Assembly: GCA_036390995.1 (NCBI GenBank)
Contig: DASWAT010000064.1
Span: 18,282 to 82,281 of the forward strand
Direction of reading: 5' to 3'
Length of the DNA stretch: 64,000 nucleotides
Source of the DNA: Actinomycetota bacterium
GTDB taxonomy: Bacteria > Actinomycetota > UBA4738 > HRBIN12
The position numbers and the translations under genes were made by a program. The notes beneath the pieces were generated by a model. That model was not told the origin of the DNA. It saw only the letters and a list, made by a program, of their open reading frames with translations, and did not search any database. Below are positions 2,706 through 33,709 of this stretch, one piece after another. The first letter of the stretch is position 1; each line of letters opens with the position of its first letter.

Positions 2706-3554
2706 TCACGTGGCCTCGATCGACCCGATGTCATCCGCCGACAGCCGGATCTGCGCCGCGGCCAGGTTCTCCTCGAGATGCGAGACACGGGAAGTGCCGG
2801 GGATCGGCAGCATCACCGACGAGCGCGCCAGCAGCCAGGCCAGAGCCACCTGCGCCGGCGTCGCGCCGTGTGCCTGCGCCACGCGGTCGAGCGCGGTGCC
2901 GGGGCGGGCGAGCTTGCCGACGTCGAGCGGGGACCACGGGAGGAACGCGATCTCCTCGGCCTCGCAGACGTCGAGGACCCCGTCGGAACGCCGGTTCCGC
3001 AGGTTGTACAGGTTCTGGACGCTCGCCACCGGGAAGAACCGCTGGGCCAGTCGGAGCTGCTCGACGGTCACCTCGGACAGACCGATGTGGCGGATCTTCC
3101 CTTCGTCCTGCAGCTCGCGGACGGTTGCGAGCTGGTCCTCGGCAGGGACCTTCGGATCGATCCGGTGGAGTTGGTACAGGTCGATCCGGTCCAGGCGAAG
3201 GCGCTTCAACGAGCCCTCGCACGCCTCGCGGAGGTACTCGGGGCGGCCGTCCTCCTCCCAGCGGTCGGGGCCGGGGCGCTGGAACCCCCCCTTCGTCGCG
3301 ATCACGAGGTCCGCCGGGTAGGGGTGCAACGCCTCGGCGATGAGCTCCTCGCTCACGTCCGGGCCGTAGGAGTCGGCGGTGTCGATCAGGTTCACGCCGA
3401 GCTCGACCGCCCGCCGGAGGACCCGGATGCTCTCGACGCGATCCTTCGGCGGACCCCAGATCCCCTTGCCGGTGACGCGCATGGCCCCGAACCCGAGCCG
3501 GTTGACCGTGAGCTCCCCGCCCATCGCGAACGAACCCGACGCGGACGCGTGCAT
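2706..3554 (-). CDS. Aldo/keto reductase
   Basis: 282-aa ORF with AKR hallmarks ([22 protein letters not shown]). Confidence 0.85.
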
Positions 3555-3604: not shown

Positions 3605-5950
<2,346 letters not shown>

Positions 5951-14476: not shown

Positions 14477-15598
14477 ATGGCGCACATCGACACGTTCGCG
14501 ATGGAGCGGATGCAGTCGCTCCACTGGCACGAGGTCGAATACGACCTGTCCGAGAGCGGCGTGACGCCGCTCTCCGTGGAGGAGCTCCTCGGCGATGGAG
14601 CGGACCCACGCGAGTTCCTTCACACCGCGCTCGGCTACCCGTTGTCGGAGGGCTCGGAGGCCACGCGGGAGCGCATCGCCTCCTGGTACCCGGGCGCGGG
14701 CACAGAGAACGTCACGGTCGTGAACGGGGGCTCCGAGGCCAACCACCTGGCGCTGTGGACGCTGCTCGAACCGGGTGATCGCCTGGCCTTCATGGTCCCG
14801 AACTACCTGCAGGGCTTGGGCCTCGGCCGCCACTACGGCGAGGCCACCGACGTCTTCCGGCTGCGCATGACCGGGGATCGGTGGATGCTCGACCTCGACG
14901 AGCTGGACCGGGCCGTAACCGAGCGGACGAAGGTGGTGATGGTCTGCAACCCGGACAACCCAACGGGCCACGTCCTGTCCGACGAAGAGATGACCGCGGT
15001 GATCGAGGCTGCCCAACGCGCGAACGCGTGGCTCGTGGCGGACGAGGTCTACCGCGGTGCCGAAGTGGGCGTCGATGAGTCCTCTCCCACCTTCTGGGGC
15101 CGGTACGACAAGGTGATCGTGTCGTCGGGCCTGTCGAAGGCGTTCGCCATGCCGGGCTTGCGGATCGGATGGGTCGTCGCGCCCGAGGAGACCGTCCGGG
15201 AGATCTGGATCCGGCACGACTACACGACGCTGACGCCCGGCATGCTCTCGGATCTCCTGGCCACCGTCGCCATGGAGCCGGCGCGCCGCGAGCAGATCCT
15301 GGCGCGCACCCGCGGCATCATCCGCCGACAGCTGCCGCTGCTCGAGGAGTGGATCAACACCCACGACGACGTGTTCGGCTACGTGCCACCCGACGCAGGA
15401 GCGATCGCCTACGTCGAGTGCGACCTACCGGTGGCCAGCGCCGATCTCGCGGAGCGTATCCGCACGGAACGATCGGTGCTGCTCGTGCCCGGCGAGATGT
15501 TCGGCCTTGGGAACGGGTTCCGGTTCGGCTACGGGTACGACATCGAGCACACCCTGAAGGGTCTGGCCCGAGTGGACGAGGTGCTGCGCACGCTCTGA
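14477..15598 (+). CDS. Class I/II PLP-dependent aminotransferase
   Basis: 373 aa. Motifs MVCNPDNPTG and SSGLSKAFAMPGLRIGW (PLP-Lys). GAGGAGG RBS. Confidence 0.8.
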   Translation: MAHIDTFAMERMQSLHWHEVEYDLSESGVTPLSVEELLGDGADPREFLHTALGYPLSEGSEATRERIASWYPGAGTENVTVVNGGSEANHLALWTLLEPGDRLAFMVPNYLQGLGLGRHYGEATDVFRLRMTGDRWMLDLDELDRAVTERTKVVMVCNPDNPTGHVLSDEEMTAVIEAAQRANAWLVADEVYRGAEVGVDESSPTFWGRYDKVIVSSGLSKAFAMPGLRIGWVVAPEETVREIWIRHDYTTLTPGMLSDLLATVAMEPARREQILARTRGIIRRQLPLLEEWINTHDDVFGYVPPDAGAIAYVECDLPVASADLAERIRTERSVLLVPGEMFGLGNGFRFGYGYDIEHTLKGLARVDEVLRTL

Positions 15599-29629: not shown

Positions 29630-30220
29630 GTGCAGAGGCGATGCGCGTGGGCGGACGGGAGCGATGCGCTGTACCTCGCCTACCACGACGAGGAGTGGGG
29701 GGTGCCCTCGCACGACGACCGGCACCTGTTCGAGATGCTCGTCCTCGAGGGCGCCCAGGCCGGCCTGTCGTGGTCCACGATCCTGCGCAAGCGCGAGGGC
29801 TACCGCTCGGCGTTCGCGGGCTTCGACGCCGAGCGGGTTGCCCGGTTCGACCGACGCAAGGTCGAGCGGCTGCTCGCCGATCCGGGCATCGTCCGCAACC
29901 GCCTCAAGGTGGAGTCGGCCGTGAACAACGCCCGATGCGCGCTCCGGGTCCGCGTCGAGCTTGGATCGCTCGACGCCTACCTGTGGGGGTTCGTCGACGG
30001 CACGCCGATCCGCAACCGCTGGACGAGGCTGGAGGAGATACCCGCCGAGACCGACGAGTCACGAGCCATGAGCAAGGACCTCAAGACGCGCGGCTTCCGT
30101 TTCGTCGGCCCGACGGTGTGCTACGCGTTCATGCAGGCGACCGGCATGGTGAACGACCACGTAGCGTCTTGCTTCCGATACAAGGAGCTGAGTCTCCACG
30201 AAGGAGATCCGAGACCCTAA
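29630..30220 (+). CDS. tag: DNA-3-methyladenine glycosylase I
   Basis: N-terminal RCAWA..DALYLAYHDEEWG and C-terminal CYAFMQATGMVNDHV blocks typical of Tag. Confidence 0.85.
   Translation: MQRRCAWADGSDALYLAYHDEEWGVPSHDDRHLFEMLVLEGAQAGLSWSTILRKREGYRSAFAGFDAERVARFDRRKVERLLADPGIVRNRLKVESAVNNARCALRVRVELGSLDAYLWGFVDGTPIRNRWTRLEEIPAETDESRAMSKDLKTRGFRFVGPTVCYAFMQATGMVNDHVASCFRYKELSLHEGDPRP
30141..30183 (+). repeat. Direct repeat copy 1 (tag 3' end, core CGGCATGGTGAACGACCACGTAGCGTCTTGCTTCCGATAC)
   Basis: Core of about 40 nt, repeated at 30844-30886 and 32508-32550 with 3-4 mismatches. Confidence 0.85.
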
Positions 30221-30261
30221 GCCACACCCGTCGGGACTTCAGATCGAGGTCTCGGATCAGA

Positions 30262-30636
30262 CTAGATCGACCCCGATCCCTTGCACACCTCGCCGTTCTT
30301 CTTGTTCACGGCACGCACCGCGATCGTGTCCGTGCCGGAGGCGTTCCTCACGGTCCTGTCGATCTCGAAGTCTCCATCGTGCTCTGTGGCCCGCGTACCG
30401 CGCCAGACCACCGAGCCGTTGTGCCGCATCACGGCCCGCCAGGTTTGCCCTGCCCGCGGTGTGTGCCCCTCGAAATCGACCTCGATACTGCCTTCGCGGT
30501 CCAACTCCAGCGTCCAATGCGACCTGAGCGTGCACTGGCCGCTCTTGAAGACTTCCGTGTCTTCAGCTCGGGCGGCGGGAGCCGCGATCGTAAGGAGAGC
30601 CAGAAGAACGATGATCGTCCGCATGAGTCTCGTCAT
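30262..30636 (-). CDS. Small secreted protein (signal peptide), cargo of islet 1
   Basis: Strong GGAGGAAG RBS. N-terminal signal peptide MTRLMRTIIVLLALLTIAAPAARA. 124 aa. Confidence 0.55.
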   Translation of the reverse strand: MTRLMRTIIVLLALLTIAAPAARAEDTEVFKSGQCTLRSHWTLELDREGSIEVDFEGHTPRAGQTWRAVMRHNGSVVWRGTRATEHDGDFEIDRTVRNASGTDTIAVRAVNKKNGEVCKGSGSI

Positions 30637-30843
30637 GCTTCCTCCCGACCTTCTATGGTCGATCCCATGCTCGCAAGCGGACTGATCCTGGACTGCGGTC
30701 GGGCGACCCGCAGGTTAAGGGACTGTTGGCCGCCATGGTGTCAGGGCCGGGTATCGCGAGGACTCGGGAGAGAAGTACAGCAGACAACAGGCGCTTGCCG
30801 GGTTGCGTCGCCATGTCGATCGTCTCGTGTACGCGAGCTCTAT

Positions 30844-30886
30844 CGAGCGGCATGGTGAACGACCACGTAGCGTCCTGCTTCCGGTA
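30844..30886 (+). repeat. Direct repeat copy 2 of the tag 3' end
   Basis: CGGCATGGTGAACGACCACGTAGCGTCCTGCTTCCGGTAC. In-frame pseudo-C-terminus GMVNDHVASCFRY followed by a divergent tail. Confidence 0.85.
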
Positions 30887-31033
30887 CGCCGAGATCGAGG
30901 CCATGAGCAGGGGGCCGGGGCGGATCTAACGTTCACAGCTGCGCTGCCTGTTGGACATGCTGGACGAGTGCTCGGGCCACGCGGACGAGCTCCAGGGGCC
31001 GGGCACCCAGCGCCCGAGGTAAGGGCCCCGGGG

Positions 31034-31438
31034 TCAGATCGGCGGAGCACCGTGCCACGCGATCTGGTTGCAGGTGCCGTGGTAGCGGTCGTGGACGAGG
31101 TCGATGGGGACATCCCACACGCCTTGGATGTGCCGACCGGGGGGAGCCCAGAATCCGATGCTGCGCGGGTGACCCGAAGGTGGGGGCGGGATGATGCCTG
31201 CGTACACCTCTCGTCCGCTGGATCCGAACGCGAAGACGCGGCATTGGACGTTCAGGGCCTGATCGGCAGAGTTGACGGTTACCACCTTGCAGCAATCATG
31301 GGATCCCTCCCCGTAAGGCAAGAGCAGCATCCTCACGGGACTGTCCGATGCAGCCTCCGAGTCGCTGGGGTGCGCCTCACCGCAGGCAACGAGGGTCACG
31401 AGTAGCACGCAAACGGCGGAGAGAACGGCTCGCACCAA
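31034..31438 (-). CDS. Putative lipoprotein, cargo of islet 2
   Basis: Signal peptide with lipobox LVAC. 134 aa. Locally reduced GC upstream. Confidence 0.5.
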   Translation of the reverse strand: MVRAVLSAVCVLLVTLVACGEAHPSDSEAASDSPVRMLLLPYGEGSHDCCKVVTVNSADQALNVQCRVFAFGSSGREVYAGIIPPPPSGHPRSIGFWAPPGRHIQGVWDVPIDLVHDRYHGTCNQIAWHGAPPI

Positions 31439-31716
31439 TCCACCCTTCCGCTCGCGAACCTACACGCCAGCACGCGAGAGGACAATCTGGAGGAGGATGA
31501 ACTTGCGCGCTTGCATCTTCGTCGAGACGTTGCGACGGACCGTAGACATACGCTAGGCGCCTCTCCGCAGTCCTTTTGCCGTATGTACATCGTCGAAGTG
31601 GCCTGCTTGACTTACTGCGTTTGATGGGTTGGCGTGTCCTCGCCGACCTCGGACAATCGGTCACTTCGTCGCGGAGCCCGCGCCGAGATGGGCGACCCGA
31701 GGGGAGGGGTTCGCAC

Positions 31717-32202
31717 ATGAAGAAGCCCACCAAGCGTGGGTGGGGCCTGGTGCTCTTGACGGTGGCACTCGCTGGGACACTGGCGGCTGCCACCATGCTT
31801 CCTGGGTTGGCGACCCCAGGGATCAACAGCGCGAGCACGCTACTGGCCCGGGGCACGGACCAGTCTCCCGGGACCCTTCCGTTCCGGGAAGGAACGGACG
31901 TGGTCGTCGCGCAGAACACGTTCGAGGTCGGTGGCTCGTCAGGGTGGCATTCCCATCCTGGAGGCGTGATCGTGGTGGTCCAGCAGGGTGAGCTCACGCT
32001 GTACCGCTCCGTGGGCAATCACTGTGAATCGACGAGGTACACGGCGGGACAGTCATTCATCGAGCGGCCCGATGACGTGCTGAACGGCGTGAACACCGGC
32101 TCGATCCAAACGATCGTCTACGCGGTGTTCCCCAACGTGCCGATTGGTGGCCCAACAAGGGTCGATGTCGCCAACGATCCCGGCACCTGCCCTGGGGTCT
32201 GA
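31717..32202 (+). CDS. Secreted cupin-domain protein, cargo of islet 2
   Basis: ATG 31717 after a GGGGAGGGG RBS. Signal peptide MKKPTKRGWGLVLLTVALAGTLAAA. Cupin-like GWHSHPGGVIVVV. Confidence 0.55.
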   Translation: MKKPTKRGWGLVLLTVALAGTLAAATMLPGLATPGINSASTLLARGTDQSPGTLPFREGTDVVVAQNTFEVGGSSGWHSHPGGVIVVVQQGELTLYRSVGNHCESTRYTAGQSFIERPDDVLNGVNTGSIQTIVYAVFPNVPIGGPTRVDVANDPGTCPGV

Positions 32203-32507
32203 GGCCTCACGGCTGGCGCGGCGTCCCCCCGCCCGATGGGGGACGTCGCCGCCGACCTGTAGCTTCACGATCCAGGGCTCCACGCAGTCACGGACCTGGC
32301 CCAATCGAAGACCAGTGTCCAGGACTACGACCAACAGTTCCGGCGTGTACCAGCCAGCGGACTCGGCGTGCCTCGCGTTCCTCGGAACGAATCCTCCGGT
32401 CGCAGTGCCGGGTGACGCCTTCACGCAAGATGCGGCCTGCGAGCAGGGAGGGGTACTACGCCTCCAAGCGGGCTACGAGCTGATCGGCGCGATCAAGAAA
32501 GCGACCG

Positions 32508-32550
32508 GCATGGTGAACGACCACGTCACGTCCTGCTTCCGACACCGGGA
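32508..32550 (+). repeat. Direct repeat copy 3 of the tag 3' end (longest upstream match: GCGACCGGCATGG...)
   Basis: GCGACCGGCATGGTGAACGACCACGTCACGTCCTGCTTCCGACAC. Encodes ATGMVNDHVTSCFRH and then a stop. Confidence 0.85.
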
Positions 32551-32552
32551 GC

Positions 32553-33709
32553 TCACGCAGACGTGATGCGTTTGCGGAGCAGGTTGGTCGCCAGTAAGAG
32601 CAGCACCGCCGCGTAGCCGGCCAGCATGGCGAGCTCCGGCAGGACGGCGCCGATCCCGGCGTCGTGCCCGAGGATCTCGCCGAACGCGTCGAGCGCCCAG
32701 GCGTGCGGGGTCACGTGGGCGATCGTCCGCATGACCGGCGGGAAGACCTCGAGCGGCACCATGCAGCCCCCCAGGGCGGCCAGCACGAGCCCGAAGAAGA
32801 CGCCGAACGACCCGGCCTGCTGGGCGTTCGACAGGGCCGAGCCCATCAGCATGGCCGCCCCGGTGCCGACGAGCGCGGTCAGCACCACCACCGCCGCGGT
32901 GGCGAGCGGGTCGCCCCAATCCACGCCGAACAGGAGCAGGGTCACGGCCACGATCAGCGCGCCCTGGAACAGCGCGATGGCGAACCGCCCGAGCCCTTCG
33001 CCCACGATCACCGTCCCCGGCGACGTGGGCGACGCCAGCATCCGTCGCGACACGCCCAGCCGCCGCGTCTCGATCAGCATCGCCGAGGCCGAGAGCGAGA
33101 CGACGAAGATGAACAGCACGACCTCCTGGGCCGCGCCGTACCCCAGCGTGCCGCCGAGCTCGTCGCCCCCGGCCGCCGTGGCCCGCACCGTCACGAACGG
33201 GACCGTGCCGGCGACCTGCCTTGCGCGGGCCAGGGCGGCGTCGAAGCCGGCGGCGCCCTCCTGCTGCGCGAACCGGGCGGCCCGCAGCTCGATGGCCTGG
33301 CGGTCGACGACCCCGGCGACGATCAGGCTGCCCTCCTGCCCGCCGCCCGTCGGCCTCGCGATGTACGGCAGCGACGCGGTCTCGCCCGCGCGGACGTCGC
33401 GGTCGTAGCCCTCGGGGATCACCAGCCCGGCCTCCACCTGCCCGCGCTCCACGGCCGTGGTCAACGACGCCCGGTCGTCGTAGGCGCGCACGCGGATCCC
33501 CTCGGTGCGCTCGAGCCGGTCGAGCAGATCGGCGCCCAACGGTCCGCTCCCCCGGGACACCACGCCGAGCGCCGGCGTGGACGAGGAGCCGAACACCGCC
33601 CGATGGCCAGGATGATCAGGAACGGGAACACCACCATGAAGAACAGCGCGGTCCGGTCCCGGACGATCCGCCGGAGGTTGGTCCCCGCGATGGCCAGGAC
33701 GCGGCTCAT
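32553..33709 (-). pseudogene. ABC-2 family permease with an apparent -1 frameshift near 33596-33605 (possible pseudogene or sequencing error)
   Basis: N-terminus MSRVLAIAGTNLRRIVRDRTALFFMVVFPFLIILAIG (ATG 33709, ATGA-coupled to the upstream permease) runs in one frame. The remaining 347 aa (VFGSSSTPALG...) run in another frame. The junction is at a G-run (ATCGGGCGGTG). Confidence 0.55.

Follow-up and report, generated by a model that had tools for sequence, protein, structure and literature searches.

Tandem accretion of mobile elements at the 3' end of a conserved gene has been described in several bacterial systems. The cis-mobilizable elements (CIMEs) and tandem accretions at the fda 3' end in Streptococcus thermophilus (ICESt1/ICESt3 family), and related tandems of integrative conjugative and integrative mobilizable elements, combine insertion at such a site with loss of integration and transfer genes, retention of the att junctions and restacking at the regenerated site; the CIME definition and a three-step accretion scenario come from the same source (PMC5704250). 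Composites of the staphylococcal cassette chromosome (SCC) at rlmH (orfX) in staphylococci, including ccr-less pseudo-SCC and the arginine catabolic mobile element, are formed by large serine recombinases (LSRs): insertion is in the last codons, the gene stays intact, direct repeats bound the stacked units and some units have no recombinase (PMC7029136). Here we describe a locus that resembles both, at the tag gene of an Actinomycetota metagenome-assembled genome (MAG), within a 64-kb stretch that we call the window. Three direct repeats of the tag 3' end bound two short low-GC islets, and the structure is probably a tandem of two recombinase-less remnants (CIME-like or pseudo-SCC-like) of tag-targeting LSR elements. 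Structures of this type are well known; the tag target and this recombinase and element family are apparently undescribed in searchable literature, where no report of tag as an attachment site was found.

The window shows two CIME features: its islets have att-type bounds, and no integration genes of their own were found by tblastn, Pfam or tblastx. The ICESt1/ICESt3 CIMEs differ in being conjugative, in using tyrosine integrases and in sharing an identical core, whereas the intact relatives at tag described below are phage-like, encode an LSR and have repeats that are similar only. SCC repeats are about 18 nt, and the elements, which are not phage-like, occur in Firmicutes and use recombinases (CcrAB, CcrC) from another LSR branch. 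On the tag side, the repeat would replace 16-25 codons of the gene, the related LSRs are nearest to a phage-type integrase and the hosts are Actinomycetota MAGs. Judged by layout, the match to an SCC-type composite (tag at full length, three repeats, two recombinase-less units) is a functional analogy only.

The ssrA-specific islands of Dehalococcoides are mobilised by a serine recombinase. Like the tag islets, they form tandem stacks at the 3' end of a conserved gene present in single copy and carry direct repeats of that end (PMC3146451). The target there is a tmRNA gene, the cargo consists of reductive dehalogenase operons and the host belongs to another phylum.

Two further comparisons concern the intact relatives. 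Capsid-forming phage-inducible chromosomal islands (cf-PICIs) mostly encode tyrosine integrases and occur in Proteobacteria and Firmicutes. The tag elements resemble them in size (7-10 kb) and in gene content: genes for capsid, portal, protease and terminase are present, and no tail genes could be recognised; the window itself keeps none of the cf-PICI-type genes. Phages of the Bxb1 and phiC31 type disrupt or truncate their target gene. The tag elements share the enzyme class of the actinophage serine integrases Bxb1 (attB in groEL1) and phiC31 and an attP that adjoins the integrase gene, but the attP of tag elements appears to supply a replacement gene end.

Repeated tag ends and low-GC islets in the window

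A pattern search of the window located the 35-nt core GGCATGGTGAACGACCACGTnnCGTCnTGCTTCCG at 30143-30177, 30849-30883 and 32507-32541, all on the + strand and in direct orientation, with spacings of 706 and 1658 nt. Exactly these three sites were returned even when up to 3 mismatches were allowed, none was returned in 100 shuffles (chance expectation 0), and a profile search recovered the 3 copies and none further. The copies have 1-3 mismatches per 35 positions and are 32-34/35 alike. Within the motif GMVNDHV.SCFR, which the core encodes, lie the His and Cys of the zinc site at the C-terminus of Tag, and each copy continues into its own Tag-like in-frame tail and stop: FRYKELSLHEGDPRP in copy 1, FRYAEIEAMSRGPGRI in copy 2 and FRHRELTQT in copy 3. 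Upstream of GGCATGG at copy 2 there was zero similarity to Tag. The same 35-nt stretch is conserved across tag genes generally: unrelated genomes are alike at 25-32/35 positions, so identity alone is no proof of duplication in situ.

Composition and gene context distinguished the native tag end from the others. Of the three, copy 1 belongs to the working tag gene and forms its end (Table 1). GC at third codon positions (GC3) was 0.93 in the tag body, 0.64 in the last 22 codons (30152-30217) and 0.94 in the tail of copy 3. The drop within the gene indicates that the working tag finishes in foreign sequence: tag is probably native up to about 30151, and codons 30152-30217 appear to have been supplied by an element. 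A convergent ABC-2 permease gene ends in the tail of copy 3, which overlaps its stop codon (32553-32555), and GC was back at 0.74 directly after this tail. Native-like GC3, the overlap with a native stop and the recovery of GC identify copy 3 as the displaced native tag end. For annotation, the final tag codons in such genomes can be foreign, and small secreted-protein genes adjoining tag are probably horizontally acquired.

Table 1. The tag locus of the window: features, positions within the stretch and supporting details.
Feature	Position	Strand	Details
tag, DNA-3-methyladenine glycosylase I, 196 aa, intact	29630..30220	+	Pfam Adenine_glyco 3.6e-83 over 1-176 of the 177 profile positions
Repeat copy 1, attL-type junction (tag body + putative islet A replacement C-terminus, P' arm)	30143..30189	+	GC3 drop starts here
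Islet A, about 0.66 kb of foreign DNA, one gene	30190..30848		GC 0.60-0.66; probably the most recent insertion
Islet A cargo, 124-aa secreted protein, function unknown	30262..30636	-	Signal peptide (..AAPAARA/ED) by inspection
Possible P-arm remnant of attP at right end of islet A, CGTGTACGCGAGCTCTATCGAGC	30823..30848	+	Immediately 5' of GGCATGG; tentative, weak evidence
Repeat copy 2, junction of islets A and B	30849..30896	+	Tag-like tail to stop 30927-30929, read as a replacement C-terminus that islet B would have brought in
Islet B, about 1.6 kb of foreign DNA, two divergent genes	30897..32506		GC 0.59-0.70; probably the older insertion
Islet B cargo, 134-aa putative lipoprotein, function unknown	31034..31438	-	Lipobox LVAC; coding-type GC pattern
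Islet B cargo, 161-aa cupin with N-terminal hydrophobic signal-like segment	31717..32202	+	Pfam Cupin_2 3.5e-07, 30.3 bits vs cut-off 27.2
Repeat copy 3, attR-type junction, original chromosomal tag end NDHVTSCFRHRELTQT before the stop	32507..32566	+	2.4 kb displaced from gene; native GC3
ABC-2 permease gene, native right flank, outside island	32553..33596	-	Pfam ABC2_membrane_3 6e-33; GC3 0.97

The segment holding the islets was foreign in composition. GC over 30000-32600 was 0.59-0.68, the minimum of the window, compared with 0.70-0.79 in the flanks, and the islet genes had GC3 of 0.75-0.81 compared with 0.89-0.97 in neighbouring genes. In islet B the lowest GC fell in the divergent intergenic region at 31440-31720.

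Seven homologues of the 124-aa islet A protein were found, including an identical NCBI entry (HEX9122666.1). One lies in an intact tag element (L170; 52% identical, E 9e-34), where it adjoins attL in the same orientation relative to tag. Another, 62% identical, lies in a tRNA-Thr-flanked islet at locus L161. That islet is 1.5 kb long and low in GC, and is bounded by a tRNA-Thr gene (4896-4968, minus strand) and a partial tRNA repeat at 3368-3398 (31 nt, 81% identical), with no integrase in the islet (L161:3368-4968); the cargo gene family thus also occurs in a tRNA-targeted remnant. For the 134-aa protein of islet B, a full HMMER scan gave 27 relatives of similar length (best 1.5e-30) and a word-indexed search gave none; no Pfam or PHROG family matched it, and the context of one relative (L185) was chromosomal and uninformative.

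Searches of the window for a recombinase were negative: with tblastn, four LSRs of the tag-element family had no match below E = 0.2, Pfam searches of 20 window open reading frames (ORFs) identified no recombinase, and none was seen among the remaining ORFs, which were judged by eye from their N-termini. In a tblastx comparison of the islets with eight element loci, no element gene fragments were detected except the islet A cargo gene. No significant similarity to a recombinase start was present in the sequence that precedes copy 2. None of the NCBI-derived homologues whose accessions were checked carries the VF984 locus-tag prefix, and no recombinase could be linked to the source MAG. An LSR gene stands next to attP in five element loci described below (L167, L170, L173, L179 and L182) and not in the window, which therefore carries remnants rather than an element.

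These findings agree with a first-pass annotation of this DNA, which had reported three direct repeats of the tag 3' end with a different in-frame tail and stop on each copy, low-GC islets encoding a signal-peptide protein, a lipoprotein and a cupin protein, and no integrase in the window. The precise alignment of the copies that it had proposed revealed a sharp common left edge.

Serine-recombinase elements at tag in other genomes

A strict core pattern scan of viral contigs gave 0 matches, and a relaxed pattern led to L167, a 10.2-kb contig that starts inside a tag gene and ends in a Tag-end fragment. Between these ends it encodes a large terminase, prohead protease, portal, capsid-like protein, helix-turn-helix (HTH) protein, topoisomerase-like protein and 422-aa serine recombinase (Resolvase 1e-32 plus Zn_ribbon_recom; PHROG 95 integrase, 2.9e-76). 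The best PDB match of this recombinase was the 500-aa integrase 9iu2 (6.9e-38), which from that length we take to be Bxb1-like. Its 126 relatives, at 43-100% identity, came from soil metagenomes and make up a sizeable family of compact LSRs of about 420 aa, which together with their sites hold practical interest for genome engineering. When the viral contigs were searched with the L167 recombinase alone, only L167 itself was recovered; an alignment of 28 sequences added only L176.

Four further loci had a related LSR with a Tag-end fragment adjoining it. A full tag gene stood at the far end in L170 (LSR 79% identical to that of L167), L182/L184 (73%) and L173 (53%, in a 3.45-Mb genome); the contig of L179 (58%) ends before tag and shows attR only. 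From the LSR start codon to the Tag-end fragment was 15-46 nt in L170, L182, L179 and L173, and one extra gene intervened in L167. The full tag gene was 6.8-9.2 kb from the LSR-side fragment in L170, L182 and L173. Both junctions were seen in L167, L170, L182/L184 and L173, and the LSRs of these loci and of L179 were 53-100% identical to one another. The elements are 7-10 kb long and phage-like: they encode the integrase, HTH regulators, primase/helicase-like proteins, HNH, terminase, portal, protease and major capsid proteins, and many of their ORFs are unannotated. No tail genes were recognisable in L167, L170, L173 or L182. Such capsid-encoding elements add phage-satellite candidates in the poorly studied Actinomycetota.

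The two junctions of these elements differed in what they tracked. At attR, the recombinase-proximal junction, the Tag-like half had the canonical NDH motif and followed the host: L170 and L182, from related hosts, had similar attR tails running into similar downstream sequence. At attL, on the gene side, the Tag-like half followed the element, as L167 and L182 lie in different hosts and had nearly the same tail, QDHVT.CFRYAELGGT before the stop. The attL tails of L170, L173 and a further locus, L008, were of the N[S/G/C]H...ELGG type. Upstream of attR the intact elements shared a P-arm consensus, TGTACGGGATnnTACCTTAGCGGTC, which abuts GGNATGG. Because the attR half tracks the host and the attL half tracks the element, the crossover probably lies where the repeat has its left edge, near GGNATGGTN, with an attP that carries a replacement Tag C-terminus. 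The attL and attR repeats of L167 were about 74% identical over 50 nt; copies would be similar, not identical, because attP supplies a homologous Tag C-terminus of its own. The tag gene is thereby identified as an attachment site, with attB in a widely conserved gene and an attP that would rebuild its target.

The left edge of homology lay within about 10 nt of GGCATGG in 9/9 displaced copies from six genomes, and the window islets are bounded by Tag-end copies with the same left edge as attL and attR of the intact LSR elements. Within the window, the evidence for hybrid junctions consists of composition and a partial P-arm match: compared with the intact-element consensus TGTACGGGATnnTACCTTAGCGGTC followed by GG, the segment CGTGTACGCGAGCTCTATCGAGC matches in part, is 3-4 nt shorter and is missed by an ungapped profile.

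At the occupied sites (L008:10502, L170:17426, L173:19168, L167:124 and L182:10165), NDH was changed to NCH, NSH, NGH or QDH and the zinc-ligand His and Cys were kept. Four other tag genes (L145, L153, L156 and L083) read NSH or NNH with no second copy in the available contig; their ends might represent attL junctions whose elements extend past the contig end.

The attL-proximal end of the intact elements held variable cargo: a secreted protein in L170, GerE plus tRNA-Asp in L182 and tRNA-Asp in L167. The tRNA-Asp(GTC) genes lie just inside attL (L167:268-342, L182:9951-10026). A near-identical strain, L183, was 99.5% identical to L182 up to GerE; beyond that point, tRNA-Asp and attL of L182 give way in L183 to other small genes, HTH_31 among them (L183:9880-11424), which shows that cargo next to attL was replaced or that another insertion took place there.

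In L176, a 10.9-kb viral contig (L176:1-10896), the recombinase was 46% identical to the tag-targeting LSRs and both contig ends encoded parts of a cpaF/tadA-like secretion ATPase. Target choice thus shifts with divergence, which suggests that L176 is a sister lineage with another target gene. A different arrangement was seen at L171:9963-19926 (L172 was the same), where a well-conserved P arm and a Tag-end fragment lay on the strand of the gene for a 58%-identical LSR, at a distance of 9.9 kb from it. No tag gene was found within 10 kb, a misfit to a simple attL/attR picture, and the arrangement may be rearranged or composite.

Repeated tag ends were rare outside these elements. Among 160 tag loci taken from representative genomes and metagenomes, where many contigs were too short to show an extra copy, the Tag-end motif occurred once in 152 and was missing from 7; 159/160 had no extra copy, and extra copies were found only in L008. 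This Actinomycetes MAG, whose Tag is 76% identical to that of the window, has three: at the gene end (10502), in the middle (11301) and distally (13945). The middle copy is degenerate, with one codon deleted, and the copies bound a 0.8-kb single-gene islet and a 2.6-kb islet whose cargo and flanking genes differ from those of the window. Comparison of the window and L008 islets showed nothing in common except the repeats, and no recombinase was found in the L008 array. The attL tail of L008, KELGGT before the stop, belongs with the element-type tails of L167, L170 and L173. In both the window and L008 the tag-proximal islet is a one-gene unit of 0.7-0.8 kb with its gene on the opposite strand.

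An uninterrupted tag/ProDH junction was found in L081, the counterpart of the junction that the element splits in L173. The L081 junction (1533-1593) itself has an element-like tail, QDH...GLGGRSR before the stop, which could be the scar of a lost element or a native tail type that gave rise to the replacement arm of the elements.

Origin of the islets

We propose that the tag 3' end acts as attB for a family of small phage-like elements with an LSR of about 420 aa. One arm of attP would be a replacement copy of the last 16-25 or so tag codons. A cut at the left repeat edge, near GGNATGGTN, would join the tag body to the element-encoded C-terminus and keep tag intact, and the original gene end would be pushed to the far side of the element. 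Since the original end is displaced and a replacement end is gained, Tag-end copies would come to flank the insert. In the window, element B would have inserted into tag first, and element A would have followed into the regenerated tag end. Loss of the recombinase and phage modules from both would then have left two short cargo islets, encoding secreted proteins and lipoproteins, between att-type junctions. The puzzling repeat structure would in this way be explained by an ordinary process of site-specific insertion, stacking and decay.

The serial site-specific integration at the tag 3' end suggested by the first-pass annotation is supported by the intact loci: four LSR elements occupy the same position with the same repeats, L179 adds a recombinase-side junction and one element carries the islet A homologue. 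The annotation had also read the repeats as attL/attR-like duplications that regenerate the gene end. The regenerated end stands, but the repeats are probably not target-site duplications, as attP appears to bring its own homologous Tag C-terminus.

Several points weigh against descent of the islets from this LSR family. Neither islet contains a recombinase, a recombinase pseudogene or a phage-gene fragment, so descent by deletion is something we infer rather than see. The islets are unusually clean, with whole genes only; the islet A cargo homologue sits at the attL-proximal end of intact L170, and no deletion scars or gene fragments are left in the islets. A second internal P-arm copy, a possible source of clean deletions, was sought in the intact elements and none was found. 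P-arm similarity is partial upstream of copy 2 and unconvincing upstream of copy 3. The element-derived tails of the window keep NDH and do not have the ELGG ending typical of the intact LSR elements, so the parent elements may belong to another subfamily. An attL is normally not an LSR substrate, and tandem insertion requires the regenerated tag end to act as a putative attB. Finally, a Tag protein scan of genome and metagenome contigs, from which the source species is absent, gave a best identity of 77%, and a look-up of the exact Tag sequence of the window had no match. With no close relative at hand, the comparison with empty sites that the first-pass annotation had advised succeeded in part: loci elsewhere have no extra copy and L081 has an uninterrupted junction, but there is no true pair of empty and occupied sites within the lineage.

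The strongest competing explanation, which we consider unlikely, is that the islets never had a recombinase: they would be non-autonomous mini-elements, consisting of attP-type ends and cargo, moved in trans, in a cassette-like capture, by the tag-specific serine recombinase of a full element, resident or transient, located elsewhere. All 4/4 islets, two in the window and two in L008, are clean and made of whole genes with no pseudogene debris, and the recurrence of a small single-gene, opposite-strand islet next to tag in both genomes fits such a unit, as does the presence of the same cargo family in an intact element, a tRNA-Thr-flanked islet and a tag islet. Poor conservation of the islet P arms relative to intact elements, however, argues against selection for functional sites, and the middle copy of L008 is degenerate, with a deleted codon. 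Neither circular nor empty forms were seen, nor was a recombinase in the window; moreover, the attL-proximal end of intact elements is variable cargo, so that simple internal deletion gives the same picture.

A stronger version, slightly less likely again, holds that the islets are working minimal cassettes of one or two genes, shuffled in trans by tag-specific serine recombinases into and out of the tag 3' end. If so, tag would be a serine-recombinase platform for the capture of secreted-protein genes in uncultured soil Actinomycetota, a functional parallel to the integron with an unrelated mechanism. Given how poorly the islet P arms are conserved, we regard inert debris as likelier than cassettes mobilised in trans.

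It is improbable that the islets were left by tag-targeting elements with another recombinase, such as a tyrosine integrase, the LSR likeness reflecting merely a shared attractive target. The window tails have no ELGG signature, the P arms match weakly, and repeats alike at 32-34/35 positions are closer than LSR attL/attR pairs and more typical of the identity segment of a tyrosine integrase. Against this, none of the loci examined had a tyrosine-integrase element at tag, the islet A cargo homologue lies in an LSR element, and the left edge of the repeats is within a few nucleotides of the edge in the LSR elements.

We give still less credence to a RecA-dependent single crossover (Campbell type) between tag and circular foreign DNA carrying a piece of tag, within the conserved 35-60 nt and without a site-specific recombinase. 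High conservation of the segment between unrelated genomes (25-32/35) and the authentic Tag-like tail on each copy would both be expected, but random tag fragments would vary in length, whereas the left edge is constant in the nine displaced copies; in addition, RecA acts poorly on 35-60 nt of imperfect homology, and intact elements with an adjacent LSR occupy the same site. An integron-like array with the Tag-end repeats as attC-type sites, a version of the cassette-array alternative raised at first pass, accounts for serial short cassettes separated by a repeated unit but can practically be discarded, given that the repeats form no imperfect-palindrome hairpin on either strand (folding z -1.33 to +0.56) and are coding sequence of a housekeeping gene, that no integron integrase, attI or tyrosine recombinase was found in the window, and that the cargo genes lie in both orientations.

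Neighbouring genes and further tag loci

The Xre-RES pair upstream of tag had been considered a possible part of the same island. It lies outside the att-bounded segment and its GC3 values (0.97 and 0.89) are native, and we therefore exclude it from the island. This toxin-antitoxin candidate (window:28274-29620) consists of a 270-aa ORF that Pfam did not match and, between it and tag, the gene for a RES-domain protein (Pfam RES 1.8e-10), which directly precedes tag. A second toxin-antitoxin-like pair was seen at window:18306-19113, in the form of overlapping genes for an HTH_3 protein (2.2e-12) and a DUF6036 nucleotidyltransferase-like protein, the latter scoring below the Pfam cut-off.

At L024:10001-10576 the tag frame breaks between GMV and DRPH, an apparent frameshift in the repeat region, and continues into a downstream hydrolase-like ORF.

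An aminotransferase gene lies directly 5' of tag in L008 (L008:8864-9989) and L096. Its homologue in the window (14477-15598) is 14 kb upstream of tag, and the intervening 15.6-29.6 kb may be variable or rearranged.

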